From IMG/VR virus record IMGVR_UViG_2718218228_000013: a DNA stretch of 21,065 nt; one strand, given 5' to 3'. Made by a program: the position numbers and the translations under genes. A model generated the notes under the pieces. The model was not told the DNA's origin. It made no database searches and saw nothing but the letters and a program-made list of their open reading frames with translations. Shown in pieces: positions 143 to 21,065 of this stretch. This stretch comes from a virus. Lineage: Duplodnaviria > Heunggongvirae > Uroviricota > Caudoviricetes. How positions within the stretch are numbered: position 1 is the first letter of the stretch; each line of letters opens with the position of its first letter.

Positions 143-675
143 ACCAATAATCGCCACCAACACAATGATTTTAATACATAAATTAAAATAGAAGATTTAA
201 ACTACACACACCCCTATACACATTGGTGAAGGCGTTCGCTTTCCGCGCATTCTCAAGGCAGAAAAAACTTTTTTTGGGGGAAAACTGTTCATACTACTCA
301 TTGTGTTTTTTTTCATTAATATTCAAAAAGATATGAAATTAACGATTGATAAGAAGTGAACACTTTACTGTTCACCTTGACTGATTAATAAGTGCATAAA
401 AACCTAATTTTTGAGCACGGAAGGTATTTGTTCCTTACCCCATTTTTTCTCTTTAGTCCAGTACAACAAAAAATGCGCCCAACAGAAAACTGTTTTGAAT
501 TTAAATGCAATCGCTTTGTAGTGATTGTAACGTAAGTTGATTTGATGGGTGCGATTTTGTTTAGCGATAATGGTATGTTGTAAAAATCATTTCGTTGCAA
601 TAAAATTGCATCGCTACATTTTATAGACAATATCAATTAAATTTTAATACTCATTATTAATTTTGAGGCTAACAA

Positions 676-1632: not shown

Positions 1633-1764
1633 ACATCATCTAACAATGAATTAGATGCATTTTCCGCTGACGCCTTAGCATATAACTTTTAAATTTTATC
1701 GATATATATTTTGAGATAATTTCCTGTAGCGGATTTAAGACCGGCACAGCCGGTCTTAGGTCAG

Positions 1765-4098
1765 TTATTTCGCTGCAAACTCATCGCATTTTGGCAACCA
1801 GTCAGCATTGCTTTCCTCTCTTAGGGCCAGATTAGTCTGCATTCCTTGATTGGTCCGTCGTTTCTCATACTGCAGCCCATATTCCTTGAGCATTAACGGT
1901 AGCCCCTTGCCAAACATGGTCAGACTGAGCGTATTTTTATAGCCGTTAGCCTCCATGTAGACCAGATAGGCATGGTAGAGGTAAGTTCGAGGCTGACGTG
2001 GAACAATATTAGCGTTCCCCATAAACATGCCCGTGGTGTCAGGTAGGACCTCAAGGTAGCCGCAAAAATCAAAAGCTGAATCAGCATCACGTTTGATGGT
2101 GAGCGCTTCATCGGAGTTCTGCTGTGACTGAAGCAATGTCCTGGCACTCATTGGGTCGCTGAAACGCTGCATAAGCTGGCGAACAATCACCGCTAGCTCA
2201 CTGGCAATTTTCTCTTTGAGCTGGGTATCGCGTTCCTCCGGGGCTATCTGGTCGGGGAAATGCAGGATCACCCTTCGGCGTGAAACTCCACCACTACGAT
2301 CAGTGAAGCGCATCGGATTATTGTTCACAGCCAGGATGACCGCCGGGATGTGGGTTGAATAGGCGTTCTGATATTTGGGATCAACGGATACCGCATCGCC
2401 GCCAGTGATGGCTTTTAGTCCGGCCCCGTCACCGCTCCACTTTTCCTGGTCGGGAAGTCGAATCAGTGAAAAACCTATTAACGCAGCTCGTTCTCTTGGC
2501 GACTCAAGCATTTCAATGGTTGCCGAGGTCGCGTTATCTTCACCCGCCAGCATGGTTGCTATTTCAGCAAGAATACTCTTTCCACTTCCGCCAGGGCCAG
2601 TGACCTCCAGAAACAGCTGCCAGTCATAACGGTTAGCCAGCACCATAAACAATGCAGCCAGAATAATGTCCCGTTTTTCAGGATTAAAACCTGCGGCACG
2701 ATCCAGCCAGCGCCAGAATGCCGGGGCATGGGTTTCCAGTGACTCACCGTCAACGGGCTGCGTGTAATCCACCTCGCACAGCGTACGTAACCAGTGCTTC
2801 TTATCGTGCGGGCTGAACAATCCTGTCCGGGTATCGAGCACACCGTTGCGAAATCCGATAAGTTGCCGCGCCGGATTCTGCTGTTGCGGAACGATCAGTT
2901 TGAGGGTTTCCACGAGAGACGCAATTTTCGCGGATGAAAAAGGTGCGTCGAGGCGCTGAAACAGCGCAGCGACATCACGGGCAAAATCGGCGTAATAGAT
3001 AACTTTCCAGGCCCCCGCCTCATAGCGTGAAAGGAGCTGCCCGTTCGGGTCTACTGCCAGTGAATTTTTATAGTGATCCACTACCCTCTGCGCTTTTTCG
3101 CTGACGCTCAGCGCGGTAAATTCAGCTTCGCTCATTGTGTCGAAGGGGCTGGCAACAGCTGGTTTTATTACTTCATGAATTGCATGCCGGGTGGCTTCTT
3201 CGCCGTTTTGCGTGAATGCATCGTTCCAGTCACCAAACACAGGCGGGAGCGCCATTGTGCAATTGCAGGCCCCGGTAACAGCTGCGCCCCTTGTTTGCCC
3301 CGCACCGTTGAGATCGCGGTCAGCAGCAATAATTATCTGGTGCGTTGGGTACTCACTGCAGGCAATGCTCGCCAGGGAAAGGAAATTGACGGACGAAAAG
3401 GCCACCATGACAGCATCGCCAGTCAGATAGTTGATAGTAAGTGCGGTGGCATATCCTTCCGCTATCCAGAGCCGTTTGGCTGCTTTGGCAGTACCTTCAA
3501 CCAGGTAAAAGGCATTCTTAACCTGACCGCCTTTAAGGAAGCATTTGCCCCCATTAGCGTTGATTAACTGCAGATTTACCAGCTCTCCATCTGCATACAA
3601 TGGAACGACAAGATCTCCCGCGCGAAATGCCACACCACCGACTTTATGCATAGCGGTTAATTCCCGGCAAGGCAGTGCAGGAAACCCTTTACTCGTCAGA
3701 TAGGCATTGCCAGTGGTCTGGCGGGACTTATCAAACAAACGGGCAGCCAGCACTGCTGCAGCTTTTCTCCCGTCCTCTTTTTCAGGAGAACCAGATTCAA
3801 GCATTCCCTGAGATACTGGCAGCAGGTTTCCGATAATGCCGTTTATTCTGTCTGCCGCTTCACTAATGCCTACATCCAGTACTTTACTTACAAGCGCCAG
3901 GCCATCACCTGCCCCGCACTGGTTACAGAACCACGTTCCCCGCCCTTCCTGGTCATCAAATCGAAAGCGGTCTTTCCCGGCACAGACCGGGCAGGGCTGG
4001 TGCCGATTTTTCAGTACATTTACGCCCAGCGCAGGTAAAATTCTTGACCAGTGACCCCGAGCTGCTTTCTCAGCCTGGCTAACTTTCATTCCTGACAT
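1765..4098 (-). CDS. P4 alpha-type DNA primase-helicase (777 aa)
   Basis: ORF 1765..4155; start placed at the internal ATG (4098) preceded by AAGGAGGG. N-terminal Cys-rich zinc-binding primase region (CPVCAGKDRFRFDD...WFCNQCG); Walker A-like GPGGSGKS. Length equals P4 alpha (777 aa). Confidence 0.92.
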   Translation of the reverse strand: MSGMKVSQAEKAARGHWSRILPALGVNVLKNRHQPCPVCAGKDRFRFDDQEGRGTWFCNQCGAGDGLALVSKVLDVGISEAADRINGIIGNLLPVSQGMLESGSPEKEDGRKAAAVLAARLFDKSRQTTGNAYLTSKGFPALPCRELTAMHKVGGVAFRAGDLVVPLYADGELVNLQLINANGGKCFLKGGQVKNAFYLVEGTAKAAKRLWIAEGYATALTINYLTGDAVMVAFSSVNFLSLASIACSEYPTHQIIIAADRDLNGAGQTRGAAVTGACNCTMALPPVFGDWNDAFTQNGEEATRHAIHEVIKPAVASPFDTMSEAEFTALSVSEKAQRVVDHYKNSLAVDPNGQLLSRYEAGAWKVIYYADFARDVAALFQRLDAPFSSAKIASLVETLKLIVPQQQNPARQLIGFRNGVLDTRTGLFSPHDKKHWLRTLCEVDYTQPVDGESLETHAPAFWRWLDRAAGFNPEKRDIILAALFMVLANRYDWQLFLEVTGPGGSGKSILAEIATMLAGEDNATSATIEMLESPRERAALIGFSLIRLPDQEKWSGDGAGLKAITGGDAVSVDPKYQNAYSTHIPAVILAVNNNPMRFTDRSGGVSRRRVILHFPDQIAPEERDTQLKEKIASELAVIVRQLMQRFSDPMSARTLLQSQQNSDEALTIKRDADSAFDFCGYLEVLPDTTGMFMGNANIVPRQPRTYLYHAYLVYMEANGYKNTLSLTMFGKGLPLMLKEYGLQYEKRRTNQGMQTNLALREESNADWLPKCDEFAAK

Positions 4099-4111
4099 TG
4101 TGCGGCCCTCC

Positions 4112-4435
4112 TTAGTGCAGCGCTGGTTTGTTGAGGTGACGGGAACAAAGTTCATCCATGACCGTCATTCCGAGCAGTGAGAGAACCGGACAGGCTTTAA
4201 GCGGCCCCGACTCCATCAGATCCGAAAGCAACGCGCAGGCAATTTCCAGCCCTCTTTGCTGCCCATGCTGGCGCAGATAGAACCCTTCCAGCTCGCGGGC
4301 TATGGCATCTTCAAGTTCAGCGAGCGTCAGGCCGGAATAACGTTCCTGATGATTGCTTAGAGCCAGCCAGGCACAGGCAACGGCACGGCGATACAGAGCG
4401 GCACGAAGTGCCAGAAGAGATTCACAGCATATCAT
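4112..4435 (-). CDS. Hypothetical protein (107 aa) upstream of primase
   Basis: ORF whose start overlaps the upstream gene stop (TGATG-type) and ends 13 nt before the primase start. No motif recognised. Confidence 0.5.
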
Positions 4436-4656
4436 CAGGCCACCTCCGCATTCATCAGGTCGTCATGGCAGCGTTGCACCACTCCATCCAGTTGCTCTGT
4501 CATCAGATAAATGAGGGAAACCAGTTGTTCGCATTGGGCACCTGCTGGCTTTTCATAACAGTCCTGCAGGGCTGCCATGCCAGTTACATACTCACCCACA
4601 TTGCGTAAATGTTTCAGCCTTACAACATCGTCGTAGGAAATCTCAAACTGGTTCAT
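4435..4656 (-). CDS. Hypothetical small protein (73 aa)
   Basis: ATG start with GGAGG 9 nt upstream; ATGA overlap with the upstream small gene. Confidence 0.5.
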
Positions 4657-4847
4657 AGCGTCACCTCCCCGGCAGGCAGCCGTGCAGAAAGGGAGAGTAC
4701 ATAATCTCGGACTAGCAAACGGCGCGCGGAACGCTCATCGCAGGAGACAGTGCGAAGCATACAGATGCGGGGGTGAGTGTCAGCACGGCGGATTGCGGCA
4801 AACACAAAGACATATTGCGGGTGTGACGGGGTGAGGATTGTAGCCAT
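4653..4847 (-). CDS. Small protein (64 aa), possible Icd/Kil-like host-interference protein
   Basis: Internal ATG of the 185-aa ORF, preceded by GGAGG with 8-nt spacer; sits where P4/P1 immunity regions carry kil/icd. Identity is a guess. Confidence 0.35.
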
Positions 4848-4879
4848 GATGGCAGCCTCCAATAAGTAGCGGTTATTGC

Positions 4880-4980
4880 TACCACCGGAAACGCCAATTT
4901 CACTGGTGGCAGCCCGAACGGGGTTGGCGTAACCGGCCTTATTGGAAACCGGCCAGCCCGAAGGCTGCCCCGCCCGGACT
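4880..4980 (-). ncRNA. Candidate c4/cI-type antisense immunity RNA region
   Basis: Hairpins (CAGCC-CGAA-GGCTG at 4954-4967) and three GGCAGCC/GGCTGCC motif copies in mutually complementary orientations, one overlapping the RBS of the downstream small gene (4851-4860). Boundaries approximate. Confidence 0.3.
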
Positions 4981-5206
4981 ACCATTATCTCGATAGAACC
5001 ATGGTGTAAGCATAAACACCACAGCCCTGAAAATGGTTGTGCCTGAGCTACGACGTAAAAAAAGACGCAAGGGGCGTCAATTGTCGCCAATAAGTTATAC
5101 GGAACGCCAATTCCGGCTGCCGATTTTGCGACAGCGGAAAAACTATACCTGGAAATGACGACAGTAAGCAAGCCAGAATAAAGGTATTTAATGTATGCAG
5201 GTATCA

Positions 5207-5467
5207 TCATGCATCACATCCCCGCCCACGGGCGCTGATGCGGTCCGCCATCCATGCGCTGACCTCAGACTGTGCCCAGGCGACATTTTTACCGCCAAGC
5301 GGGATCTGCTTCGGAAACGCATCGCGGCTGATCAGGTCGTAAACGGTCGAACGGGACAACCCGCATAAGTGCATCACCTCAGGCAGGCGTAAAAATCGCT
5401 CATGATGGTTCGATACAGGAAATAATGGCGCAGCAGGAGCTGGCGCAGACACAGAAATATTACGCAT
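5207..5467 (-). CDS. alpA: AlpA/Vis-family phage transcriptional regulator (excisionase-like HTH)
   Basis: [23 protein letters not shown]...[12 protein letters not shown] matches the AlpA family pattern; AGAGGG RBS upstream. Confidence 0.8.
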
Positions 5468-6019
5468 TTATCTACCCTCTTTAATTTCCACAACAGTCCG
5501 GATGAATTTATCCGGGTTCAGGTAGTTCCTTATTATGTGTATATAAACCACCTGCGCACGCATTTTTTATTTAGCGTCACATATTGATTTTATGGAATTT
5601 AAAGCCCGATTAAACCATATAAAATGACATAATAAATACCATGCCTGCGGACTATAAATACAGGAGCATTAATAGGAACTACCATTCACCCAGGGTTTAC
5701 TATCCTATGGGTCATTGCACCTGATAGTGCTAACCCCACCGCCAATACAGCAAGGCAGTACAACTTCTACACGAGGCCTTGCATTGCAGGCCCCAATTTC
5801 CGGGCATATTTTTGAATCGCATCCAACTTATAAACATTGGGCCTGCATAAAAACCTTGATATTAAATAACATCACCTTAAATCGTAAAATATATCCGAAT
5901 GAATCCATAAAGAACCGGACAGATCTAGTTTTATAAAAATCAGTATGAAATGCAACACCATGGCCAGAGGCGAAAATGTTATTCCCCGGCAAAAACATGC
6001 AGTCTATTTATGTGCCTGT

Positions 6020-6234
6020 TGAATACTCCTGAATAAGGGTGAATAGTGGTGAGGAGCAAAAAACAAATAGCTACGAGGAATAAAAAAACCACCCATTATG
6101 AAAAAATACCATAAATAATTTTATTCCCATGTGAACAGTTATGAACAGTCGATGAATACTGCCATGCCAACCCTTCACCTTATAACCTTCTGTATTACCT
6201 ATTTTTTTTACCTAAGTGAATAGTAGTGAATAGT
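6020..6234. repeat. Cluster of at least 7 direct 8-9 bp iterons TGAA(T/C)A(G/C)T, candidate alpha-binding crr/ori-type site
   Basis: Copies at 6020, 6040, 6132, 6142, 6153, 6217, 6227, mostly 10 bp apart; reverse complement contains TGTTCAC, the P4 type I iteron core. Similar motifs at 286-295, 356-364 and 369-376. Confidence 0.5.
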
Positions 6235-6312
6235 TAAGGTAAGTCTGAAACAGCCTTAGTTAAACGAGGCCTTTTCTGGCTAGCCAAAAGAGGTCCGGGG
6301 CGGTTCAGTCTT

Positions 6313-6330
6313 TGTCTTGTCGCTCGCACA
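6313..6330 (+). promoter_or_regulatory. Candidate Ogr/Delta-dependent late promoter element (TGT-N12-ACA dyad) upstream of sid-like gene
   Basis: TGTCTTGTCGCTCGCACA fits the P2/P4 late-promoter activator dyad, about 70-90 bp upstream of the ATG at 6401. Confidence 0.4.
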
Positions 6331-6400
6331 ATGGCGTTCAATGGCAGCTTTGTATGCATCACAGCACAATTGACACCACGACAAACCACTAGGTGCTGAC

Positions 6401-7153
6401 ATGACAATCCCAGAACAGAACAATAACCCGATCGTTGAAATTTCTATCCCTGTTTCGACGCAACAGGCGCTTGAGAAAGTGAATGCCACCAAATCTGCAT
6501 GGCTTGAAGCACGTCGTCAGCAAAAAGCGGCAGCGGATAATATTGCGACAATCCGCCAGCGCCGCGCTGAAATGGAAGCCACGACGAACGCCCTGAATGA
6601 GGAGTGGCGCACGCTATTTCGTGAAAGTCAGGGCGTAGTCTCAAAGGAAATGAAAAAACTGCGCACGGAAATTGCGCTGGGACGAGAAACGCTTGAGGAT
6701 TTTGATGAGCTGCTGGCGGCTCAGGAAAGCGAAAATGCACTTTTGCCGCAGGAGGCTGCGGAATTAGCCGGAAAGTATATCCACGCGCACGACACCCTTG
6801 TGGGTATTCGCGCAAAACAAATCTGGGAAGATTTTATGCAGTCGCATGGAAAAGCACTAATCCAGACACTAAGCCTGCTCAAATCAACAATGGGCAGGGA
6901 AGCCAGCGCAGTTGTCGGTGTGGTGCATTCAGTTAATGACCCGGACACACTGCTGAAAGATTTTATTCATAAACATATCACCAGACCGGCTCTGACTAAC
7001 GATGCGATGCCCGAACAGGACCCCGTGTTTAAACTGGCGGGAGTTGCCCCGGATTATGCGGCCCGTCTGGATTTCAGTAATAAACTCTCTCCAGCAGCTA
7101 TGCATAAAATGAAGGTTCGTCAGGAACGTGCTGAGAAGGAGAAAGCAGTATGA
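6401..7153 (+). CDS. sid: Sid-like capsid size determination (external scaffold) protein
   Basis: 250 aa (P4 Sid 244 aa); first gene of the late operon; internal similarity to the downstream Psu-like protein; stop overlaps the next start. Confidence 0.6.
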   Translation: MTIPEQNNNPIVEISIPVSTQQALEKVNATKSAWLEARRQQKAAADNIATIRQRRAEMEATTNALNEEWRTLFRESQGVVSKEMKKLRTEIALGRETLEDFDELLAAQESENALLPQEAAELAGKYIHAHDTLVGIRAKQIWEDFMQSHGKALIQTLSLLKSTMGREASAVVGVVHSVNDPDTLLKDFIHKHITRPALTNDAMPEQDPVFKLAGVAPDYAARLDFSNKLSPAAMHKMKVRQERAEKEKAV

Positions 7154-7701
7154 TGGCCCGAGTCACTCCAGACCAAGCGCTTATCAGTTTTAGAAATGCC
7201 CGTATTCTGTGGGCTGGACATAGTGAGAGCCGAAAAGCCGTTGAACAACAGATAGAATCACTCCTCACTGCCATGGAAAAACCAGCAGATTATGCTCGAC
7301 AGCTCGAATTACAGCGGGAACATCTGGATGTGCTGAAATGGCAAATTAACTGTGCTGCGCGCGAATGCATTTACTCGCAGCATCAACTGATGGAGGCCTG
7401 CACAGAAGACGCTCTCAGCAATTTTATGCAGGCGAATGGAGCAGCCCTGACATCTGCACTGGCTCCGTTCCTGAAGGGGCGCGGAGGGGTTGACGTTGCG
7501 TCCCGTATATTACGCAATGCTCTGGTTCGCCAGCTGGCAATAACACCGCCTGAAATTGCCGGGGATTATCGTATGATTCTGGATGAATCCGGTGTGATGC
7601 CTGACCCCATGATGGTTCGTGATTGCCAGAGCTCTTACACCCCTGCACAACAACTGCGCTTTCAGCAACGTCTGGATTACATTAACGGCATGCAGGAGTA
7701 A
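7150..7701 (+). CDS. psu: Psu-like polarity suppression / capsid decoration protein
   Basis: 183 aa; LKWQINCAARECIYS, FMQANGAALTSALAP and YTPAQQLRF resemble P4 Psu as I recall it. Confidence 0.7.
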   Translation: MMARVTPDQALISFRNARILWAGHSESRKAVEQQIESLLTAMEKPADYARQLELQREHLDVLKWQINCAARECIYSQHQLMEACTEDALSNFMQANGAALTSALAPFLKGRGGVDVASRILRNALVRQLAITPPEIAGDYRMILDESGVMPDPMMVRDCQSSYTPAQQLRFQQRLDYINGMQE

Positions 7702-7706
7702 TATTA

Positions 7707-7979
7707 ATGGCACTTAAATGTCCCGAATGCGGTACGACGGCACACGCCAGAACCTCCGCCTATGAAGCACCATCGGTTAAACGCTCATGGTATCAGTGCC
7801 AGAATCTTGAATGTTCCTACACATTTACCGCACTGGAAAGTGTGGATACGATAATCATGAAGCCCCGGCGCAATGAACAGGAATCAGAGAAAGCACAAAT
7901 GCCGGAAAAACAACAGCAAACTCTCAATCGCTATGGCTCCGCGTCAAAGCTGTCAAGCCGTCAGCAAATTCCTGTCTGA
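7707..7979 (+). CDS. Ogr/Delta-family zinc-finger late transcriptional activator
   Basis: CPECGTTAHARTS...YQCQNLECSYTF, the classic Ogr/Delta Cys4 motif; 90 aa. Confidence 0.9.
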   Translation: MALKCPECGTTAHARTSAYEAPSVKRSWYQCQNLECSYTFTALESVDTIIMKPRRNEQESEKAQMPEKQQQTLNRYGSASKLSSRQQIPV

Positions 7980-7999
7980 TTAGCAAAAAAAGCCCACGT

Positions 8000-8027
8000 A
8001 ATCCCGGTCCAGTACTGGGATTTTTTA
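8000..8027 (+). terminator. Rho-independent terminator after the late operon
   Basis: GC-rich palindrome AATCCCGGTCCAGTACTGGGATT followed by TTTTTT, about 20 nt after the Ogr/Delta stop. Confidence 0.6.
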
Positions 8028-8332
8028 CGCCTTTTCCCTGGCTGGCCTGAGAGCGCATGAGTGCATGTCTATAGCGCATGAAAACGCATGATTCTCATGC
8101 ACCATTTTTGACGCGAAAGCCCTTGTGTGGTGGCTTCTGAGACGATTTGCGGAATGCATGAAAACCAGTCTGTTAAGCGAAGCGAGCAGGCGTGGGGGGC
8201 TGCGCGCGCTAAGGGGTTAGATTATAAAATATCAAACGCCGGTGAGATCCATTATTGTGGAACCACCCGAAGGAAGTGTAGAGGCGAAAGTACCCAAAAT
8301 AATTTTGCAAATTATTTAGAAATGAACTGAGC

Positions 8333-8358
8333 GCTCGAAACGAAATATAATTTCGAGC
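8333..8358 (-). terminator. Hairpin downstream of the minus-strand hotspot cassette (candidate terminator)
   Basis: GCTCGAAA-N10-TTTCGAGC inverted repeat about 30 nt after the stop of the last cassette gene; flanked by T-rich sequence. Confidence 0.4.
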
Positions 8359-8388
8359 ACCCCAATTAGCAGTTATATTTTTAATGTA

Positions 8389-8955
8389 TTAAACAGGATA
8401 AAAACCAGAGCTTCCATTCTTATTTAAGTTATGGATTTTATTTGCATCATTAATTTTTATTTGGAACGTCGGACCTTTATTCTCAAGAATTACAATCTGG
8501 AAATTATAGTCCCTTTTGATTAATGCGTGATAAAATGAATCACTGAGACTGACGCTATTAACATCCGATAGAGAACCCCCTCTATCTTTATCAAAGTGCG
8601 TCACTAATGGACTATCAAGCACAACAAATCCAATGAATGGATTCCCTTTTCTTGATAAAAATTCCGCAAAGCAAATGGTAAATATAGCATGCATTACTGC
8701 ACGGGTACCTTTACCAAACATTCCTCGGCGTTTCCCATTGATATTAAAGTCATATGTATCTTCGTCAAATCGCACTTTGTTATCTTTAGAATTTTCAAAA
8801 TTTATATCATTCAAAAAGTCTTGCATCGCTATTTCTATATCATACAAATCAGCTACTGTTAAGGAGTCAAAGTCCTCGGCGGAGTATTTAAGTTCGTCAA
8901 CATCATCTTCTTTATCTTGTAATGAAGATAGAATGCTATGTTTTGTGTGATCCAT
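8389..8955 (-). CDS. ABC/SMC-like ATPase C-terminal lobe (Walker B-like FVVLDSP), hotspot cassette gene 6
   Basis: 188-aa ORF; hydrophobic strand + D (PFIGFVVLDSP); ATG overlaps upstream stop as TAATG; could be a frameshifted continuation of the upstream ORFs. Confidence 0.55.
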   Translation of the reverse strand: MDHTKHSILSSLQDKEDDVDELKYSAEDFDSLTVADLYDIEIAMQDFLNDINFENSKDNKVRFDEDTYDFNINGKRRGMFGKGTRAVMHAIFTICFAEFLSRKGNPFIGFVVLDSPLVTHFDKDRGGSLSDVNSVSLSDSFYHALIKRDYNFQIVILENKGPTFQIKINDANKIHNLNKNGSSGFYPV

Positions 8956-9545
8956 TAAAAGATTGTCTTTATATTCATAAAGTGATTCAAGAGATGAATG
9001 TATTGTTTTATATTTTTATCTTCTAACGTCTTAAAATCACTTTTTTCTGATTGATAAATTTCATTAACATCATTTTTTCTTAACATAATTAATTCATGTT
9101 CGCGAACATTAGATCCGATTGATTCAATTAATCCTTTCAGCTGGCTTTTGATTTTCAATTTTTCTGCATTACACGACAAAAAACAATCATCATATGATAT
9201 TTCATTTTCTTTTTTTTGCGGTGTATTACAGAACTCACAATAAATATCTGCAAAATTATTTAAATAGAAATTCGCCTGTGATACAACATCTATTCTTTGT
9301 AGATCTATAAAGTATTGGTCTTTAAGAAGACTAAATCTTTCAATGAGTAATGATAAGTATTTTTCCCTGTCACTGATTGAATATAATTCATCACTTAACT
9401 CTTTTAATAATTGCTTCTTATCATCAAGTGCATCAACAATACCTTTCAATATATCTTTCGATGATTCAATATCTTGCTCTACTTTCTCAAGTTCTCTTGA
9501 AACAATGACTTGATCATATTCAGGATAAATTAATTGCGCTTTCAA
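8955..9545 (-). CDS. Coiled-coil segment with central CxxC (CEFC), hotspot cassette gene 5
   Basis: 196-aa K/E/L-rich heptad-like sequence; same frame as the upstream Walker A ORF, separated only by one TAA (9576-9578). Confidence 0.5.
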   Translation of the reverse strand: MKAQLIYPEYDQVIVSRELEKVEQDIESSKDILKGIVDALDDKKQLLKELSDELYSISDREKYLSLLIERFSLLKDQYFIDLQRIDVVSQANFYLNNFADIYCEFCNTPQKKENEISYDDCFLSCNAEKLKIKSQLKGLIESIGSNVREHELIMLRKNDVNEIYQSEKSDFKTLEDKNIKQYIHLLNHFMNIKTIF

Positions 9546-9575
9546 TTCCTCATAAATATTTGCAATTTGATTTTT

Positions 9576-10226
9576 TTAAAAATATCTTGCTTTTTTATTT
9601 GGTTTTTCTGCTAAGGAGTTAGTATCATCTCTCTGAGTTAAAAGGAATTTAAATTCAGACTTTCTTTTTGTCTCCTCGCTAGGAATATCAGAAAGAATTA
9701 ACGACTTCTCAGTTAACACTCTTAATTCATCAATACAAAAAAATTCAAAAACATTATTAAGATTAAATTTATGAAGAGTATTACTTAAGTTTGTTCTTAC
9801 TTTAGCCTCTTTGAAATTCAACCTACCATAAAAGTATGATGAAAAACTCTTTTTAGACGAAGCACTTTTGGAAAAAACCATCAACAGATTAGCTTCACTA
9901 ACATTTTCAATGCTCGAATCATATAATCTGTAATGGGCGCTATCCTGAAGAGACCTCTCAATTGTCATTACCCTACCTTGAAAATTAAATTCCAGATAGG
10001 CTAAATCATAACCTTGAGCATGATCGATATCTTTATTTTTTAGTTTTTCACTCCCTAATAAATATCGAATCAAATAATATATGTATGTTTTTCCAGAGTC
10101 AGAACCACCATATAAAATAGTCAATTTAGAACCAAATTCAATTATAGCATCTAATTTATTGAATCCGGTTACCTTTATTTTTCTGAACGTAAAAAAATTG
10201 TCATTCATAATTAAATTCCATATCAT
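9576..10226 (-). CDS. ABC/SMC-like ATPase N-terminal lobe (Walker A GGSDSGKT), hotspot cassette gene 4
   Basis: LTILYGGSDSGKTYI P-loop in a RecF/SMC-like N-terminal context; ORF opens at TTG 10235, ATG starts at 10226 or 10208; ends at in-frame TAA. Confidence 0.6.
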   Translation of the reverse strand: MIWNLIMNDNFFTFRKIKVTGFNKLDAIIEFGSKLTILYGGSDSGKTYIYYLIRYLLGSEKLKNKDIDHAQGYDLAYLEFNFQGRVMTIERSLQDSAHYRLYDSSIENVSEANLLMVFSKSASSKKSFSSYFYGRLNFKEAKVRTNLSNTLHKFNLNNVFEFFCIDELRVLTEKSLILSDIPSEETKRKSEFKFLLTQRDDTNSLAEKPNKKARYF

Positions 10227-10659
10227 ATTTGCCAATTTTATTTTTTATAATTGATTGCAACTGCTCATCAGGAATATCACTATATAACTTAACCACCAAA
10301 TTTATATTATGCTCCATCTGCGCAACATATTCATTATGTAGAGAATTTGTAAATGCATATGTTTTTTCAGAAGCTTTATATACAAAACCACGATGTGTAT
10401 AAATTTTTGAGGCTAGTTCATAGCCTTGCAACAAAGCCAATGATTCTAAAACAATCTCTCGTTTTAGGGCTAACTGAGCATCTCTACGGGGTATTGGAGG
10501 ATGAAGACTAATCTCTTCAGGTAAAAAATCCTTAAGATTTACTAAAATAAAATCAAAACAAATAAGCCGTTCAAGGCTTAATGAAGAAGGATAAATAGCG
10601 ACGAGCACTTTCGCCATTCGACATGCCACTTCTAAACTTGAATTATAAATTCTAACCAT
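10201..10659 (-). CDS. Hypothetical small protein (about 152 aa), hotspot cassette gene 3
   Basis: ATG at 10659 overlaps upstream stop as TAATG; GGTGA 4 nt upstream; stop overlaps start region of gene 4. No motif recognised. Confidence 0.5.
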   Translation of the reverse strand: MVRIYNSSLEVACRMAKVLVAIYPSSLSLERLICFDFILVNLKDFLPEEISLHPPIPRRDAQLALKREIVLESLALLQGYELASKIYTHRGFVYKASEKTYAFTNSLHNEYVAQMEHNINLVVKLYSDIPDEQLQSIIKNKIGKYDMEFNYE

Positions 10660-11276
10660 TATCTCACCGTCCAAATTACTTCACCATCATTAACCAAATG
10701 ATGGCATATTCCTTTTTTATCATTTGCTTCACATATTTTTGATAGTACTGAATGTGCAATTGGTGTCAGAACAGCCTGCTTCAAGACTGCATTACACCTA
10801 ATAAATGCATAATTATGGTCTTCATAAAAGACGGGTTCAATTGAAGATGAAATGTAACATTTCAATGCTTTGAATACATCATCTTTAAATACTTCGCGGA
10901 CAAAAACCTCAAGCGAAGATGCAAAATAAAAATCATTTCTACTATTATTAAAGTGTCGTCTGTATGGATCATCAAGCTCTAAGAAAGAACTATAAGTTTT
11001 ATTTCCATGCTCTGAATAGGCTTGAAGCAGTGCATTAACATATACAGACTCTTTTTTTGAATTGTATGTTGGAATTTCATTTGGAGGGATTCTCACGACA
11101 TACAGCTCGTTAAAGTACTTAAAATAAAGGTGTGTATTTGCAATATCATTTAAAATCAATGATAAGGGTAGAGAGTAAAAAATACTAAAATCAAAATCCT
11201 CAATATATTTTTTTATTTCATCATCTAATGGAATATCAATCTTTTTAGTTATTTTTTTGAAATTGCTGAATCCCAT
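10659..11276 (-). CDS. Hypothetical protein (205 aa), hotspot cassette gene 2; possibly C-terminal part of a frameshifted gene 1-2 fusion
   Basis: AT-rich ORF with one candidate start; overlaps gene 1 by 28 nt across an A7 tract where a 1-nt indel would fuse the frames. Confidence 0.5.
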   Translation of the reverse strand: MGFSNFKKITKKIDIPLDDEIKKYIEDFDFSIFYSLPLSLILNDIANTHLYFKYFNELYVVRIPPNEIPTYNSKKESVYVNALLQAYSEHGNKTYSSFLELDDPYRRHFNNSRNDFYFASSLEVFVREVFKDDVFKALKCYISSSIEPVFYEDHNYAFIRCNAVLKQAVLTPIAHSVLSKICEANDKKGICHHLVNDGEVIWTVR

Positions 11277-11665
11277 GAATCAAGGACTGCTTTTTTAAGC
11301 TCGTTTTTATTTTTCAATAAATTAGAAAATGTAGTAGATAAATCATAGGGTGCCACAAAAAAGTACTTCTGAGGGATGGGATAATCACCATTCAGAGTAA
11401 AATAGATAAGTTTTCCAAACTCAACTACAACATCAGAGAACCCTAAACTTTTTTTGTACAGTTTGCATTGATAATTATCCCAAGAATAACCTTCTACGTT
11501 AGGATCCGATTTATATCCAACAACGTCTCTACCTTTATCTCCAGCTCCTCCCAAACGTTCGCTCCACGGGTAATCATCTGATTTACAGACAATAAGCCAA
11601 TCATGGACAAATACCCCCCATTGTTCATCATCCCATGTCAATATTTCCGAAAGTGGTTGAGACAC
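11249..11665 (-). CDS. Mrr-type PD-(D/E)xK restriction-endonuclease-like domain protein (138 aa), hotspot cassette gene 1
   Basis: GGAGDKGRDVVGY ... YQCKLYKK matches the Mrr catalytic pattern; GTG start with AAGGAG 7 nt upstream, 3 nt after the int stop. Confidence 0.55.
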   Translation of the reverse strand: MSQPLSEILTWDDEQWGVFVHDWLIVCKSDDYPWSERLGGAGDKGRDVVGYKSDPNVEGYSWDNYQCKLYKKSLGFSDVVVEFGKLIYFTLNGDYPIPQKYFFVAPYDLSTTFSNLLKNKNELKKAVLDSWDSAISKK

Positions 11666-11668
11666 AAA

Positions 11669-12850
11669 TTAACTCCTTTTTAGTCTTTCAAATATCAAAT
11701 TACTGTACCAGTCCATCATAGACTTCCTTCCACTAAAATATTGAGCATGGTTATAAGTCCCCCTAATAGAATTTTTATCTACATGAGCCAACTGGATTTC
11801 AATCCAAGCACTCTCAAAACCTTGCTCATGCAGGATTGTAGAAAGGGTATGACGAAAACCATGTCCAGTGACTTTTCCTCCATACCCAATACGCTTAATG
11901 GCTTGATTTATACTCGCTTCGCTCATTGGCCTATTCGGATCGTTCCGCCCTGGAAAAACATAACGATAGTTCCCTGTCATGATCTTGAGTTCATTGAGTA
12001 AATCTACCGCTTGAGATGATAAGGGCACAAGATGTGGCCTACGCATTTTCATCCTTTCAGCAGGAATTTCCCAAATAGCGTTATCCAGATCAAATTCTTG
12101 CCATAATGCCGCGCGTAATTCGATGGTTCTCACACCCGTAATCATCAGTAATTTCGTGGCTATCTGGACAAGCTTACTCCCGGAGTAACCCTCTAAGGCA
12201 CGTAGAAAATCAGGTATCTCATCAGCTTTTAGGAATGGGAAATGATTGGATTGGTGTACTTCGAGAGCGCTGGAGAGATCAGCCGCAGGATTGTACTCCG
12301 CCCTACCCGTTGCAATTGCGTAGCGAAACACTTCGGAGCAACGCTGCCGCACTTTGCGCATTTTCTCCAACGCACCACGTTTCTCAATTTTACGCAGAAC
12401 GTTCAGCAGCTCTAGCGGTTTAATCTCTCCCACAGGCCTTGTTCCGACATAAGGAAAAATGTCGTTCTTAAACGCTTCCATGATGTCTGATGCATATCCC
12501 GCCGACCATTTAGCAGATTTAAGTTGATGCCACTCTCTGGCTATCTTTTCGAAGGCGTTCTCTGACTCTGTTTGCATAGCTAGCTTTTGCTCTTTTCGAA
12601 CCTCACTAGGGTTCTTTCCTTCTGCCACAAGTTTTCGAGCTTCATCACGACGGGAACGAGCATCGGCAAGGGTGATCGTTGGGTAAACACCAAGCGAGAT
12701 CATTTTGGGTTTGCCGGCATAGCGATAGCGGAACCGCCAACTCTTGCTTCCATTAGGTTCTATAAGTAATGACAACCCTAGCCCATCTCCAAATGTATAG
12801 GCTTTAGCTTCAGGCTTAGCGCGGCGAATCTGCATATCGTTTAAAGGCAT
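11669..12850 (-). CDS. int: P4-type tyrosine integrase
   Basis: MPLNDMQIRRAKPEAKAYTFGDGLGL N-terminus and C-terminal HGFRHT...Y catalytic region; start placed at ATG 12850 (ORF opens at 12901). Confidence 0.92.
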   Translation of the reverse strand: MPLNDMQIRRAKPEAKAYTFGDGLGLSLLIEPNGSKSWRFRYRYAGKPKMISLGVYPTITLADARSRRDEARKLVAEGKNPSEVRKEQKLAMQTESENAFEKIAREWHQLKSAKWSAGYASDIMEAFKNDIFPYVGTRPVGEIKPLELLNVLRKIEKRGALEKMRKVRQRCSEVFRYAIATGRAEYNPAADLSSALEVHQSNHFPFLKADEIPDFLRALEGYSGSKLVQIATKLLMITGVRTIELRAALWQEFDLDNAIWEIPAERMKMRRPHLVPLSSQAVDLLNELKIMTGNYRYVFPGRNDPNRPMSEASINQAIKRIGYGGKVTGHGFRHTLSTILHEQGFESAWIEIQLAHVDKNSIRGTYNHAQYFSGRKSMMDWYSNLIFERLKRS

Positions 12851-12900
12851 GTGTATAGGAATCCAGACCGAACAGGAACATATACACAATCCTATACACA
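12850..12900. promoter_or_regulatory. Perfect 11-bp inverted repeat (TGTGTATAGGA / TCCTATACACA) bracketing the int translation start region
   Basis: Arms at 12850-12860 and 12890-12900 separated by 29 bp, immediately upstream of and overlapping the int ATG. Confidence 0.4.
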
Positions 12901-13012
12901 TTCAGTACCGGATTCTACTGGATGGTTACGGACTACTATGGACTTAAAAGAATAAAAAATGTTATAAATCAGAGATTTTATGGACTAATACGGACGTTTG
13001 AGGAAGTTGAGA

Positions 13013-13058
13013 TGGTGCCGATAATAGGAGTCGAACCTACGACCTTCGCATTACGAAT
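13013..13058 (-). other. 46-nt 3' fragment of a tRNA-Thr(CGU) gene (anticodon loop to CCA), right att copy of the P4-like element
   Basis: Reverse complement ATTCGTAATGCGAAGGTCGTAGGTTCGACTCCTATTATCGGCACCA matches the 3' part of enterobacterial tRNA-Thr(CGU) as recalled; no complementary 5' acceptor strand, so not an intact tRNA. Confidence 0.75.
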
Positions 13059-16210: not shown

Positions 16211-16765
16211 TCATTTATCTCCGGCCGGAAACTTCTTATACAGTGTCGATACACCAACATCATAGATGATCGCTACCTTCTGGCGAGGAATTCCTGCTGC
16301 AATTAATCGTCCGGCCTGCGCCCATTGTTCTGGTGTAAGTTTGGGACGACGTCCACCAATTCGTCCCTGTGCGCGAGCAGCTTCCAGTCCAGCTTTTGTT
16401 CGTTCAACAATCAGTTCTCGTTCCATTTCAGCCAGGGCCCCCATCACATGAAAGAAAAAGCGCCCCATTGGGGTACTGGTATCAATAGCATCCGTCAGGC
16501 TGCGAAAATTAACGCCACGTTCGCGCAACTCCTCAACCAGAATGACCAGATGCCGCATACTGCGCCCCAGCCGATCCAGTTTCCAGACAACCAGAGTGTC
16601 ACCTGCCGATAATGTCCTGAGCAGTTTTTTCAGTCCCGGCCTTTCGGACTTTGTACCGCTTATCTTGTCTTCAAAAATCAGCTCGCATCCTGCACAGTTC
16701 AGCGCATTACGTTGTAGATCTGTGTTCTGGTCATTTGTTGACACACGTACATAGCCAATAAGCAT
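16211..16765 (-). CDS. pin: Pin/Hin/Gin-family serine DNA invertase
   Basis: MLIGYVRVSTNDQNTDLQRNAL, the near-invariant N-terminus of Hin-family invertases, with C-terminal HTH; 184 aa from ATG 16765. Confidence 0.93.
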   Translation of the reverse strand: MLIGYVRVSTNDQNTDLQRNALNCAGCELIFEDKISGTKSERPGLKKLLRTLSAGDTLVVWKLDRLGRSMRHLVILVEELRERGVNFRSLTDAIDTSTPMGRFFFHVMGALAEMERELIVERTKAGLEAARAQGRIGGRRPKLTPEQWAQAGRLIAAGIPRQKVAIIYDVGVSTLYKKFPAGDK

Positions 16766-16791
16766 GGTAGATCTCCCTGACAAAAGCAGGA

Positions 16792-17289
16792 ATGATGCCA
16801 TTTGCTCGTTATTTCTGCATTTTCATAAACGTTGGTTTGGGAGAAGGTGCTCCAGCTATTGGCGTTCCGTTCTTCTGGCCGTCCGCTGCAATGCCAAATA
16901 CTGTAATCGACAGCTGGTCCTGTATGGTGTTTTTGAAGTTCAACGGCGCGAAATTCTCTGCCACTGATTATCCTGTGCTGGCGAAAGTGTTTCCTTCGCT
17001 GGTATTACCTGAAGCCCGCGGTGATTTCATTCGTATCTGGGATGACGGGCGAGGTGCAGACGGTGGTCGCGAATTATTAAGCTGGCAGGCAGCTACAAAC
17101 TTTTCTCAGTTTGCCGGGAATATAGGCGAAGGTGCGGGACACGCAATTAACTTTCATGATGGCATCGCCGGAAATCAGCCAGGATTTTCACGATTTAATT
17201 TCACCAGTAACTCTGTGGGTGATGGTGTGAATTTTGTTGCAGTCAGACCGCGAAATATTGCATTTAACTTTCTGGTGAGGGCTAAATAA
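16792..17289 (+). CDS. Tail fibre C-terminal variable segment (silent/partial cassette)
   Basis: Collar-like C-terminal sequence (FSATDYPVLAKVFPSLVLPEARGDFIRIWDDGRG); begins inside the crossover site with no constant N-terminal part. Confidence 0.55.
   Translation: MMPFARYFCIFINVGLGEGAPAIGVPFFWPSAAMPNTVIDSWSCMVFLKFNGAKFSATDYPVLAKVFPSLVLPEARGDFIRIWDDGRGADGGRELLSWQAATNFSQFAGNIGEGAGHAINFHDGIAGNQPGFSRFNFTSNSVGDGVNFVAVRPRNIAFNFLVRAK
16820..16845. promoter_or_regulatory. Candidate Hin-family recombination crossover site
   Basis: TTTTCATAAACG-TT-GGTTTGGGAGAA: two inverted 12-bp half-sites fitting TTnTCnnAAAC / GTTTnnGAnAA, inside the 5' end of the tail-fibre ORF. Confidence 0.45.
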
Positions 17290-17882
17290 TGAAACCTGTT
17301 TTTGATGAAAATGGGCTGGCTACAGTGCCGGGCGATATGCGTTGTTTTTATTATGATGCTGAAACATCTGAGTATACGGGCTGGTCTGATGAATATATTA
17401 ATACTGGCGTAAGTATGCCCGCCTGTTCCACTGGTATTGACCCTGGCGAAAACATTCCGGGAAGAGTGGCAGTATTTACAGGTAAGGGATGGAGCCATGA
17501 AGAAGACCATCGCAATGAGACTGTTTACTCAATCGAAAATGGCGCAGCTGTTACAGTGGATTATATCGGTGCCATCAAAGACGGTTATGTCACGATTTCA
17601 CCGTTAACGCCATACGATAAATGGGATGGTGAGAAATGGGTGACAGACACTGAGGCACAACACAGTGCCGCAGTAGACGCGGCAGAAGCACAGCGCCAAT
17701 CACTGATTGATGCAGCAATGGCTTCCATTAGTCTGATTCAGCTGAAGTTACAGGCCGGACGGAAACTGACTCAGGCAGAAACAACCCGACTTAACGCCGT
17801 GCTGGATTACATTGACGCGGTGACGGCAACAGATACCAGCACCGCGCCGGATGTCATCTGGCCTGAACTGCCGGAGGCGTAG
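17289..17882 (+). CDS. tfa: Tail fibre assembly protein (Tfa)
   Basis: Typical Tfa C-terminus (LDYIDAVTATDTSTAPDVIWPELPEA); start overlaps the upstream fibre ORF stop. Confidence 0.8.
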   Translation: MKPVFDENGLATVPGDMRCFYYDAETSEYTGWSDEYINTGVSMPACSTGIDPGENIPGRVAVFTGKGWSHEEDHRNETVYSIENGAAVTVDYIGAIKDGYVTISPLTPYDKWDGEKWVTDTEAQHSAAVDAAEAQRQSLIDAAMASISLIQLKLQAGRKLTQAETTRLNAVLDYIDAVTATDTSTAPDVIWPELPEA

Positions 17883-18306
17883 GCCATTCAATATCTGGCG
17901 CACCGGAAGTATCGACCAGCTCCAGTGCGTCCAGATAATCCAGCCACAAATTATATTGCGTCAGTTCGTCACCTTTCAGACGACCAATAGCCGCTTTACC
18001 GGGCCATTGCTTACTGTTCATGTATTCGTTGGCCTGGTTAATTAGTAGCTGTCTTTCTGATTCAGTAATTTCAATAAGCTCTTCATGCGTGGGTGGAGGA
18101 ATATCTGCCCACGCAGGCAGCCCATCATCTCCGGCAATACGGATTTTTCCTTGTGGCGGTTCAGCCATAAACTCACTGATAATATTTTGATTTACTTCCT
18201 TAGCGTCTGATAAATCCCATCCCTCTGATTTATATTTATCAATCATATCCACAGGGAAAAAAGCATTATGCCTTGCGCTATAAACATATTCGTCCATATA
18301 AATCAC
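17854..18306 (-). CDS. tfa: Tail fibre assembly protein (alternative Tfa, opposite orientation)
   Basis: Tfa C-terminus (LWLDYLDALELVDTSGAPDIEWPTPP); convergent with the other tfa, as in invertible G/P segments. Confidence 0.8.
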   Translation of the reverse strand: MIYMDEYVYSARHNAFFPVDMIDKYKSEGWDLSDAKEVNQNIISEFMAEPPQGKIRIAGDDGLPAWADIPPPTHEELIEITESERQLLINQANEYMNSKQWPGKAAIGRLKGDELTQYNLWLDYLDALELVDTSGAPDIEWPTPPAVQAR

Positions 18307-18414
18307 CCTGAATAAAATTACTCACCAACAGCCCACCAACTGTAATTCATCGATACCGTGTGAACCGCCCCGGGTTTCCTGGAGACTAAACTCCCTGAGA
18401 AAGAGGTAAACAGG

Positions 18415-18741
18415 ATGACTAAAAATACTCGTTTTTCCCCCGAAGTCCGTCAGCGGGCGATTCGTATGGTTCTGGAAAGTCAGGATGAATATGACTCACA
18501 GTGGGCGGCAATTTGTTCCATTGCCCCAAAGATTGGCTGTACGCCGGAGACTCTGCGTGTCTGGGTTCGCCAGCATGAGCGGGATACCGGGGGCGGTGAT
18601 GGTGGGCTCACCAGCGCTGAACGTCAGCGTCTGAAAGAGCTGGAACGTGAAAATCGTGAACTGCGCCGCAGTAACGATATCCTTCGCCAGGCTTCCGCTT
18701 ATTTTGCGAAGGCGGAGTTCGACCGCCTCTGGAAAAAATGA
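18415..18741 (+). CDS. IS3-family transposase OrfA (HTH)
   Basis: [22 protein letters not shown]...[31 protein letters not shown] is the OrfA type of IS629/IS3-group elements. Confidence 0.9.
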
Positions 18742-19628
18742 TGCCACTGCTGGATAAGCTGCGTGAGCAGTACGGGGTCGGACCGGTATGCAGCGAACTG
18801 CATATTGCCCCGTCAACGTATTACCATTGTCAGCAACAGCGACATCATCCGGATAAACGCAGTGCCCGTGCGCAGCACGACGACTGGCTGAAGAGAGAGA
18901 TACAGCGCGTATACGATGAAAATCATCAGGTGTACGGTGTGCGTAAAGTCTGGCGTCAGTTGTTACGGGAAGGAATCAGGGTGGCCAGATGTACAGTGGC
19001 ACGTCTCATGGCGGTTATGGGACTTGCCGGTGTTCTCCGGGGTAAAAAGGTCCGTACGACCATCAGCCGGAAAGCCGTTGCCGCAGGCGACCGCGTAAAC
19101 CGTCAGTTCGTGGCAGAACGACCTGACCAGCTGTGGGTGGCTGATTTTACTTACGTCAGCACATGGCAGGGCTTCGTCTATGTGGCGTTTATCATTGATG
19201 TGTTTGCCGGATACATCGTGGGGTGGCGGGTCTCATCGTCTATGGAAACGACATTCGTGCTGGATGCGCTGGAGCAGGCGTTGTGGGCCCGTCGTCCGTC
19301 TGGCACCATCCATCACAGCGATAAAGGCTCTCAGTATGTGTCACTGGCCTATACGGAGCGACTAAAAGAAGCCGGATTACTGGCATCAACAGGGAGTACA
19401 GGCGACTCGTATGACAACGCGATGGCTGAGAGCATCAATGGTCTTTACAAAGCGGAGGTAATACACCGTAAGAGCTGGAAAAACCGTGCAGAAGTGGAAC
19501 TGGCCACACTAACGTGGGTGGACTGGTATAACAATCGACGATTGCTGGGAAGGCTGGGCCATACTCCTCCGGCAGAAGCAGAAAAAGCTTATTATGCTTC
19601 CATCGGAAACGATGATCTGGCAGCCTGA
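18738..19628 (+). CDS. IS3-family transposase OrfB (DDE integrase core), expressed as OrfAB by -1 frameshift
   Basis: DDE region (WVADFTYV...HSDKGSQY...[11 protein letters not shown]); overlaps OrfA at the A6 run 18733-18738. Confidence 0.9.
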
Positions 19629-19796
19629 GTTCACAGATAAAACACTCTCCAGGAAACCCGGGGCGGTTCATAACCAATTGTATTTATTTTAAAATTAATA
19701 GGTGCAACTCACTAAACAACGCAATTCTGATCTCTCGATCACCTCCCAAGCCACACAACCCTGCAAAAAATAAATCTATATAAAAAACATACAGAT

Positions 19797-19859
19797 AACC
19801 ATCTGCGGTGATAAATTATCTCTGGCGATGTTGACACAAATACCACTAGCGGTGATACC
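19797..19859 (+). promoter_or_regulatory. Lambda-like OL3-OL2-OL1 operators and pL promoter (-35 TTGACA 19831-19836; -10 GATACC 19854-19859)
   Basis: Near-identity to lambda OL/pL as recalled (AACCATCTGCGGTGATA; TATCTCTGGCGaTGTTG; TACCACTaGCGGTGATA), with scattered substitutions. Confidence 0.8.
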
Positions 19860-19896
19860 AAGCACATCAGCAGGACGCACTAACCACCATGAAGGT

Positions 19897-19929
19897 GATG
19901 CTCTTAAAAATTAAGCCCTGAAGAAGGGC
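19897..19929 (+). promoter_or_regulatory. nutL-like antitermination site (boxA GATGCTCTTAA; boxB hairpin GCCCTGAAGAAGGGC)
   Basis: boxB stem-loop identical to lambda nutL boxB; boxA one substitution from lambda as recalled. Confidence 0.8.
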
Positions 19930-20086
19930 AGCATTCAAAGCAGAAGGCTTTGGTGTGTGTGATACGAAACGAAGCATTGGCCGGAAGTGCGAATCCGGAT
20001 TAGCAGCCAATGTGCCATTGCGGGGTGTTTTCGTTCAGGACTACGACTCCCACACACAACCAAAGCTAACTAACAGGAGAATCCAG

Positions 20087-20200
20087 ATGGATGCACAAAC
20101 ACGCCGCCGCGAACGTCGCGCAGAGAAACAGGCTCAATGGAAAGCAGATCGGATTCTGGCTTCAACATTTCGCAGGAATGCAACTAAGAGACATTACTGA
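20087..20200 (+). pseudogene. N: Truncated lambda N-like antiterminator (first 20 codons, the arginine-rich motif only)
   Basis: [20 protein letters not shown] identical to the lambda N amino terminus, then unrelated sequence and a stop 17 codons later. Confidence 0.8.
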
Positions 20201-21065
20201 ATCAAAAATTTATTCAGCAATGCAGAAAATGACGAACCGGCGTCATGAGGAAAACTGGAAACTCAGGGCAGAAGCATGCAGAAAAAAAGGGAAACCTGTT
20301 CCAGAATACACGCCAAAACCAGCGTCCGTTGCAACGAAGGCTACGCATCTTTCATTTATAAAGGCCCTGCTAAGAGCCGCAGAGCGTGAATGGAAAATGC
20401 TCGATAAGGCACCAATTATTAAAGTGCCTCAACCAAAGAATAAACGGATCCGCTGGCTGGAGCCCCATGAAGCACAAAGGCTGATTGATGAATGTCCGGA
20501 GCCATTAAAGTCTGTTGTTGAATTTGCACTGGCAACAGGCTTAAGACGCTCGAACATCATCAACCTTGAATGGCAACAAATAGATATGCAGCGCCGGGTG
20601 GCATGGATAAACCCGGAAGAGAGTAAATCAAACCGCGCAATTGGCGTTGCGCTGAATGATACTGCATGTCGCGTATTGAAAAAACAAATCGGTAATCATC
20701 ACCGTTGGGTATTTGTGTACAAGGAAAGCTGTACCAAACCAGACGGAACGAAAGCGCCAACAGTAAGGAAGATGCGGTATGACGCAAACACAGCCTGGAA
20801 AGCGGCGCTGAGACGGGCTGGTATTGATGATTTCAGATTTCACGACTTGAGACACACCTGGGCAAGTTGGCTGGTTCAAGCCGGAGTCCCGTTGTCAGTG
20901 TTACAGGAAATGGGAGGCTGGGAGTCTATCGAAATGGTTCGTCGATATGCTCACCTTGCACCTAATCACCTTACCGAACACGCACGGCAAATAGACTCGA
21001 TCCTGAACCCATCGGTCCCAAATTTGTCCCAGTCAAAAAATAAGGAAGGTACTAATGATGTGTAA
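20091..21065 (+). CDS. Phage tyrosine integrase, 5'-truncated and fused to the N' segment (possible pseudogene)
   Basis: Integrase-like sequence from about 20148 (GFWLQHFAG...) to [10 protein letters not shown]...VRRYAHL; the first about 19 codons are lambda N DNA read out of frame. Confidence 0.65.

Follow-up and report, generated by a model that had tools for sequence, protein, structure and literature searches.

Between positions 19797 and 20200, the virus record IMGVR_UViG_2718218228_000013, of which 21,065 nucleotides (nt) were analysed (referred to here as the window), carries a phage lambda-type leftward control region joined to the interior of a tyrosine integrase gene. The control region consists of the operators OL3, OL2 and OL1, the promoter pL, nutL and the first codons of gene N (N'), and the integrase part lacks its N-terminus (Int'). 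The region is a relic of the lambdoid prophage Sp1 of Escherichia coli O157:H7, integrated at thrW. It is very probably a non-functional remnant of the early-left region of this prophage, further decayed in the strain of the window. The fusion itself is old, is fixed in the O157:H7 clone and has already been annotated and published.

Ten complete genomes matched the 1.4 kb around the fusion at 100% identity, and many more did so at 99.9% or above. In strain Sakai the region is annotated as ‘prophage Sp1, lambda-like phage’, with ECs0271 (an integrase pseudogene), ECs0272 and ECs0274 (cI). The tRNA-Thr gene thrW lies beyond the integrase end, followed by proA and proB. The 47-bp attachment (att) core, which is the thrW 3′ end, is present in exact copies at 13012-13058 and 14 nt past the end of the window, and a degenerate third copy was located at the left end of the window, at about 110-150. 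These cores delimit tandem thrW insertions, the P4-like Sp2 (about 130-13011) and Sp1 (13012 to the end). Sakai Sp1 (ECs0271-ECs0288, in tandem with P4-like Sp2, also OI#8 / S-loop#16) has the same locus, junction and att core, but the window has an IS629 insertion sequence (IS) beside OL, lacks ECs0273-ECs0280 and carries two derived changes in pL/OL.

The Sp1 integrase was described as ‘defective’ and xis as absent by Asadulghani et al. 2009 (PMC2669165), and no excision, circularisation, replication or packaging of Sakai Sp1 was detected in that study. Its array data showed a clear induction of the residual Sp1 early genes by mitomycin C, with ‘significance unknown’ (PMC2669165). By comparative genomic hybridization, Zhang et al. 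2007 found ECs0272-0280 to be absent from lineage II strains (PMC1890555); a literature search on ECs0271-0274 and Z0308/9 returned this paper only.

An earlier note on this DNA, made from the letters alone, had proposed a lambda-like OL/pL-nutL-N' block with the first 20 codons of N nearly identical to those of lambda. Alignment to lambda located every one of the listed elements. Lambda 35300-35775 and window 19671-20147 were identical at 440 of 479 positions (91.9%), and the match is exact from the N ATG at 20087 through 20147, that is codons 1-20 plus one base. All three 17-bp lambda-type operators are present at lambda spacing. The resemblance as a whole is far beyond chance. The elements, all on the plus strand, are the following.

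19671-19796, plus strand: non-coding spacer 5′ of OL3, homologous to DNA 3′ of rexB in lambda and 3′ of the NYN gene in ev099.
19797-19813, plus strand: operator OL3, identical to the annotated lambda OL3.
19817-19833, plus strand: operator OL2, with one change versus lambda (19828 A, a derived G>A).
19831-19866, plus strand: promoter pL, with −35 TTGACA at 19831-19836 and −10 GATACC at 19854-19859.
19841-19857, plus strand: operator OL1, with one change versus lambda (19848 A) in common with ev099.
19866, plus strand: inferred pL +1, from the homologous start of lambda pL.
19899-19929, plus strand: nutL, with boxA TGCTCTTAA at 19899-19907 and the boxB hairpin at 19915-19929.
19930-20086, plus strand: N leader, aligned to lambda and ev099, with the Shine-Dalgarno sequence AGGAG at 20075-20079.

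The boxB is that annotated for lambda NutL, without any difference, and its hairpin was also picked up computationally. The boxA TGCTCTTAA has T as its first base, like ev099, and differs there from lambda. From OL3 through N codon 20 the order and spacing are those of lambda; the window differs in that N ends after codon 20, the −10 element lacks its final T and single changes are found in OL1, OL2 and boxA. Lambda has rexAB-cI upstream, which the window strain lacks. Of the sequenced free phages, ev099 (Radostvirus ev099) comes closest in the control region: it is identical at 462 of 479 positions across 19671-20147 (96.5%) and departs from lambda in most of the same places. The cI-cro region kept in Sakai Sp1 very closely resembles that of ev099 as well, but in ev099 the −10 element is GATACT, N is intact and the early-left operon is complete. 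The scattered substitutions, which the earlier note had attributed to a natural lambdoid relative, are for the most part differences from lambda inherited from an ev099-like phage.

A consensus promoter scan of 19600-21065, which needs T at the last −10 base, did not call pL. Its sole sigma-70-like match lay at 19667-19695 (TTCATA-17-TAAAAT, directed toward OL/pL), a hybrid site spanning the IS629 right end and its flank, and the number of matches did not exceed chance expectation. Rfam contained no RNA family matching 19600-21065. In the window as a whole, Rfam matches were limited to the IS629 frameshift pseudoknot and two P4-type small RNAs.

Right after the arginine-rich boxB-binding motif of N, which is retained in N', the sequence passes into integrase DNA in another frame, as had been proposed from the letters. 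The features of the fusion are the following.

20087-20200, plus strand: N' open reading frame of 37 codons, N residues 1-20 followed by 17 out-of-frame residues from integrase DNA, with the stop codon at 20198-20200.
20091-21065, plus strand: Int' open reading frame of 324 amino acids (aa), its ATG in the +1 frame relative to N.
20147/20148, plus strand: deletion junction, N codon 20 joined to integrase codon 83.

The N' reading frame is the counterpart of Sakai ECs0272, which is annotated as ‘phage early gene regulator’. The Pfam N36 model, over the first 20 of its 35 positions, matched residues 2-21 of N' (E 3.8e-10). Instead of a complete N of 107 aa with NusA- and polymerase-binding regions, only residues 1-20 were found. 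Without its NusA- and RNA polymerase-binding parts, N' cannot antiterminate like N.

On the integrase side, 20148-21065 encodes residues 83-387 of an SfIV-type Int, 305 of 305 aa being identical to SfIV Int. The SfIV int DNA was 99.4% identical over 926 nt from 20148, and the five nt differences across 20148-21065 are all synonymous. The integrases of SfIV, SfI, SfV, SfII and phi458 showed 98.5-99.4% DNA identity over the 925 nt retained, but in the window the first 82 codons and the upstream excisionase gene are missing and the integrase frame can be reached only from the out-of-frame ATG inside the N start region. Pfam Phage_integrase matched the 324-aa reading frame over almost the whole model (E 2.3e-47, positions 1-171 of 172). 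The Pfam N-terminal domain of SfIV Int was absent from Int'; codons 1-82 are deleted and the integrase's own start codon is gone. The Prokaryotic Genome Annotation Pipeline (PGAP) labels the gene as a pseudogene missing its N-terminus; the Sakai counterpart ECs0271 is also annotated as a pseudogene. The gene ends at 21065, 14 nt before the 47-bp att core at the thrW 3′ end. Lacking the arm-binding N-terminal domain, and with no xis, Int' cannot recombine like the parent integrase. No full-length N and no complete integrase were found at this locus.

The ancestor combined an immunity region of the ev099/lambda type with an integrase of the SfV/SfIV type. A single illegitimate deletion then took out N from codon 21 on, the first 82 integrase codons and everything between, as the earlier note had supposed for most of N through the integrase N-terminus; going by the comparison with phi458 it removed about 7.4 kb. 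Phage phi458 has a lambda-like N start and the same integrase type, and in its genome the corresponding breakpoints are about 7.4 kb apart, with the kil-gam-bet-exo region and other early genes in the interval. Related intact phages hold N, recombination genes, xis and int there. The microhomology at the junction is imperfect (AAAGCAG in N, AAGCCGG in int), which fits illegitimate recombination. What remained after the deletion was OL/pL with nutL, the N leader and the first 20 codons of N, out of frame with the catalytic part of the integrase, the form that is fixed in O157:H7. The thrW prophage of O55:H7 CB9615 was considered as the direct ancestor and rejected. It is a related intact prophage in which the genes between N and int follow the same order, but it has a different immunity region and an integrase of a different type (about 72% over a short stretch); it shares only 19865-20147, from the pL start to N codon 20, at 96%.

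For the comparison among strains, 91-mers were searched against all complete E. coli genomes. The junction 91-mer (20102-20192) was identical in all 216 complete-genome records carrying it, including Sakai and EDL933. Fragments of the pL-N' kind are classic expression vector parts, which could suggest an engineered cassette or an assembly chimera. This can practically be dismissed: the same junction occurs in these 216 independently sequenced records, always at thrW, it is flanked by prophage, IS629 and chromosomal DNA, and its closest relative is the natural phage ev099 and not lambda. The earlier note had likewise favoured a natural origin, which the thrW locus in 216 complete O157:H7 records and the Sakai annotation of Sp1 bear out.

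Across 19673-21065, the window and Sakai differ at three positions only, 19828, 19859 and 20448. At 19828, position 6 of an OL2 half-site, G is replaced by A; half-site position 6 is C in 11 of 12 lambda half-sites. At 19859 (−7), T is replaced by C, so that the −10 element reads GATACC instead of GATACT; this difference from lambda had been noticed from the letters and was found again in the alignment. Position 19828 is G and position 19859 is T in lambda and ev099 as in Sakai Sp1, so both window changes are derived. Six other differences of the window from lambda and ev099 are in common with Sakai. At position 20448, the only intra-O157 polymorphism of Int', the window and SfIV have Ile and Sakai-type strains Leu; the Ile allele is probably the ancestral one, because it matches SfIV. 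T at −7 is among the most conserved positions of sigma-70 promoters, and the pL −10 element already deviates from consensus at other positions. For these reasons GATACC is expected to cut pL activity strongly, in line with the weakening that the earlier note had supposed, and we infer that pL is now weak and the unit largely silent.

The left boundary of the remnant is an insertion sequence.

18361-19670, plus strand: IS629/IS1203, 1310 bp, with orfA (18415-18741), orfB (18738-19628) and a frameshift pseudoknot.

The pseudoknot was matched by Rfam as ALIL at 18696-18812, and PGAP annotates an ‘IS3-like element IS1203 family transposase’. The element adjoins the spacer at 19670/19671. Sakai-type strains have pin and the invertible tail-fibre segment, then a fusion of tail fibre and P', followed by the genes O, cII, cro and cI, a truncated PIN/NYN gene and finally OL/pL-N'-'int. 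In the window strain ECs0273-ECs0280 are deleted, comprising PIN/NYN, cI, cro, cII, O, P' and tail fibre; cI, which lies beside OL in Sakai-type strains, is absent, and pL has no cognate repressor in cis.

Intermediate states were found among other strains. Some carry cI-PIN-OL/pL-N'-'int without any IS, some keep cI intact and have a simple IS629 insertion, with TAA duplicated, between OL and the PIN gene, and strain DEC4E has an IS629 in the tail-fibre segment, again with cI intact. The IS629 of the window has no target duplication, its flanks being gtg and taa. At the left end it departs by 3 nt from the same-site copy in cI+ strains and equals the variant of the tail-fibre copy, and on the right it has the flank of the OL-proximal copy. 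The Pin-invertible segment at 16211-18360 (pinE, two tail-fibre assembly genes and C-terminal cassettes) has the opposite orientation to Sakai. This flip places the IS629 copies in direct orientation, as needed for them to recombine and delete cI. The arrangement is what recombination between two IS629 copies after Pin inversion would leave, and this second event removed cI, cro, cII, O and P' together with part of the tail-fibre region. The junction between tfa and the IS that marks the deletion was present in 10 records only. A larger IS629-bounded deletion, extending to hyxA, was found in 180-PT54.

The site 5′ of OL (19670/19671) is a hot spot of IS629 events, with six states across strains: a simple insertion with TAA duplicated, occurring in two left contexts; what looks like a precise loss, in strain 149; a footprint left by a 7-bp deletion, in the Sakai type; a copy in inverted orientation shifted by a few bases (MB41-1); a separate deletion variant (DEC4E); and IS-bounded deletions of 4 kb or more than 30 kb. 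A search of a limited literature collection for the IS-excision enhancer returned nothing. The internal NYN/PIN deletion of the Sakai type also took a hairpin terminator, which lies 3′ of the NYN gene in ev099 and 3′ of rexB in lambda, so that transcripts from the cI promoter may read into OL/pL-N'-'int in these strains.

It was considered whether the −10 and OL2 changes compensate for the loss of cI. This was rejected on two grounds: in the 18 records of the CEC08123 type, 19859C occurs together with cI, and DEC4E carries both changes alongside intact cI, cro and cII genes. In cI+ strains the pL unit would be repressed by cI and SOS-inducible, judging from the mitomycin C array data, and in the window strain it is most likely a weak, unregulated relic. 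Transcription from pL would run antisense into thrW and proBA.

The two derived changes belong to a cluster of substitutions in the OL2-pL-OL1 core. The 91-mer 19800-19890 was found in its ancestral form in 173 records, with one mismatch in 45 and in the window type, with two changes, in 11. As 216 records bear the junction and 173 are ancestral, at least 43 of 216 are variant. Among O157:H7 genomes at least nine different single-base changes occur, all within 41 bp (−47 to −7 of pL).

19819, T>C: in three strains.
19827, G>A.
19828, G>A.
19830, G>A.
19834, A>G: −35 becomes TTGGCA.
19836, A>G: −35 becomes TTGACG.
19842, A>G: OL1 position 2.
19847, T>C.
19859, T>C: −10 becomes GATACC.

All nine are transitions and none is located in OL3. 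Three fall in the −35 and −10 hexamers (at −32, −30 and −7) and are expected to be promoter-down; three are at operator positions 2, 4 and 6, invariant or nearly so among lambda operators, and are expected to derepress pL; the remaining three are at variable operator positions. The chance of nine random sites in the 91-mer falling within 41 bp is 0.008. The surroundings were nearly invariant. The control 91-mer of the upstream spacer (19706-19796) was exact in 281 of the 282 E. coli records matching at the E-value cut-off, that of nutL was exact in 250 records with no O157 variant among the sampled matches, and that of the junction was exact in all 216. Among 14 strains, the sole other single-nucleotide polymorphism (SNP) in 19673-22390 was the one at 20448, and this lineage differs from Sakai by two SNPs in 15 kb of adjacent chromosome. 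The O157:H7 core genome has been reported to contain about 3300 SNPs, about 0.7 per kb, without hot spots and with prophages masked (PMC4928038). Standard SNP pipelines mask prophages, which would explain that the hot spot in the core has been missed.

One reading of this cluster is recurrent selection on the orphan pL unit, acting through the N' peptide, Int' or antisense transcription into thrW-proBA, with GATACC as one adaptive outcome. The nine sites within 41 bp, the share of variant records, the control 91-mers lacking O157 variants, the changes in the −35/−10 hexamers and at operator positions 2, 4 and 6, and the low SNP density of the core genome, determined with prophages masked (PMC4928038), all point in this direction. 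The changes are not in one direction, however, promoter-down and derepressing ones both occurring, and this mixture fits poorly with simple selection to silence pL. Moreover, the strains examined in detail had been chosen for variation in the 19800-19890 91-mer, the number of independent mutational origins is a minimum estimate made with no whole-genome phylogeny, and singleton changes could have been acquired in culture. Recurrent selection is accordingly put forward tentatively, as a reading with somewhat less than an even chance of being right.

The mixed direction would leave selection on something common to both classes of change, selection that fluctuates, or a locally raised mutability of DNA to which repressor and polymerase bind. 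Under the last of these, DNA bound by a cI tetramer or by RNA polymerase, or a head-on promoter, would mutate more often without any effect on fitness, and the −10 change would be neutral decay at such a site. The nine transitions overlap the OL1-OL2 repressor-bound stretch and the polymerase site and spare OL3, the OR of the same prophage is polymorphic too, and the mixed predicted effects fit a mutational cause better than directional selection. Nevertheless, nutL and the upstream spacer, only tens of bases away, are invariant, and we know of no precedent for a hot spot of about 100-fold or greater at a repressor-bound operator in E. coli. Such hypermutability is considered rather unlikely.

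The OR region of Sp1, which lies in the cro-cI intergenic region (about 18386-18485 on a Sakai basis) and is deleted from the window, was also variable. Its 91-mer was exact in 146 records and had one mismatch in about 64. The variants comprise one deep, lineage-wide SNP in the OR1-OR2 spacer (18431, Sakai-based) and singletons at two OR2 positions. The cI, Cro and cII protein accessions were unchanged in all strains examined.

Several observations weigh against regarding the fragment as a non-functional relic. The weakness of GATACC is deduced from general knowledge of sigma-70 promoters. Even with a dead pL, read-through from IS629 or the site at 19667-19695 could transcribe the unit. Starting with an ATG 11 nt past the N Shine-Dalgarno sequence, the integrase frame stays open for 324 codons, and a catalytically competent Int' fragment could be made from it, judging from the 305 residues identical to SfIV Int. 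The full boxB-binding motif is kept in N', and the fragment outlived several independent IS629-mediated deletions of everything to its left.

The retained boxB-binding motif, the open Int' frame with its identity to SfIV Int and the persistence of the fragment would also suit a domesticated module, in which N' would act as an SOS-inducible boxB competitor against N-dependent phages, or Int' would retain some residual DNA activity. The invariance of junction and nutL in the 216 records and the response of the Sp1 early genes to mitomycin C (PMC2669165) agree with it as well. Yet the clonality of O157:H7, with two SNPs in 15 kb of adjacent chromosome, predicts invariance over 1.2 kb in any case, and the location between the IS and thrW-proBA explains the persistence of the fragment. 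This lineage also carries a change predicted to be promoter-down, and the Int' of Sakai-type strains a non-synonymous one (20448, Ile to Leu). No experimental support for a domesticated function was found, and domestication is regarded as improbable. A non-functional early-left relic remains by far the best account of the locus.

Within the neighbouring Sp2, Rfam matched a C4 antisense RNA and isrK at 4902-4989 and 5058-5135 on the minus strand. These matches adjoin the primase-helicase / Icd-like region of Sp2. At about 9576-11276 (minus strand) genes annotated as an AAA ATPase and as ‘ABC-three component system’ proteins lie beside the P4-type integrase gene, as candidate anti-phage defence cargo.

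The fusion documents the decay of a lambdoid prophage, first by illegitimate deletion and later by IS629 recombination, and as such it was already known. The density of substitutions in the OL2-pL-OL1 core, about two orders of magnitude over the background of the clone and with invariant immediate surroundings, offers a modest lead. If selection is the cause, a ‘dead’ prophage fragment would still have an output that is regulated and that lowers or raises the fitness of an important pathogen. If the cause is mutational, the core would be a clear case, found in nature, of bacterial DNA that is prone to mutation where it is protein-bound or serves as a promoter.

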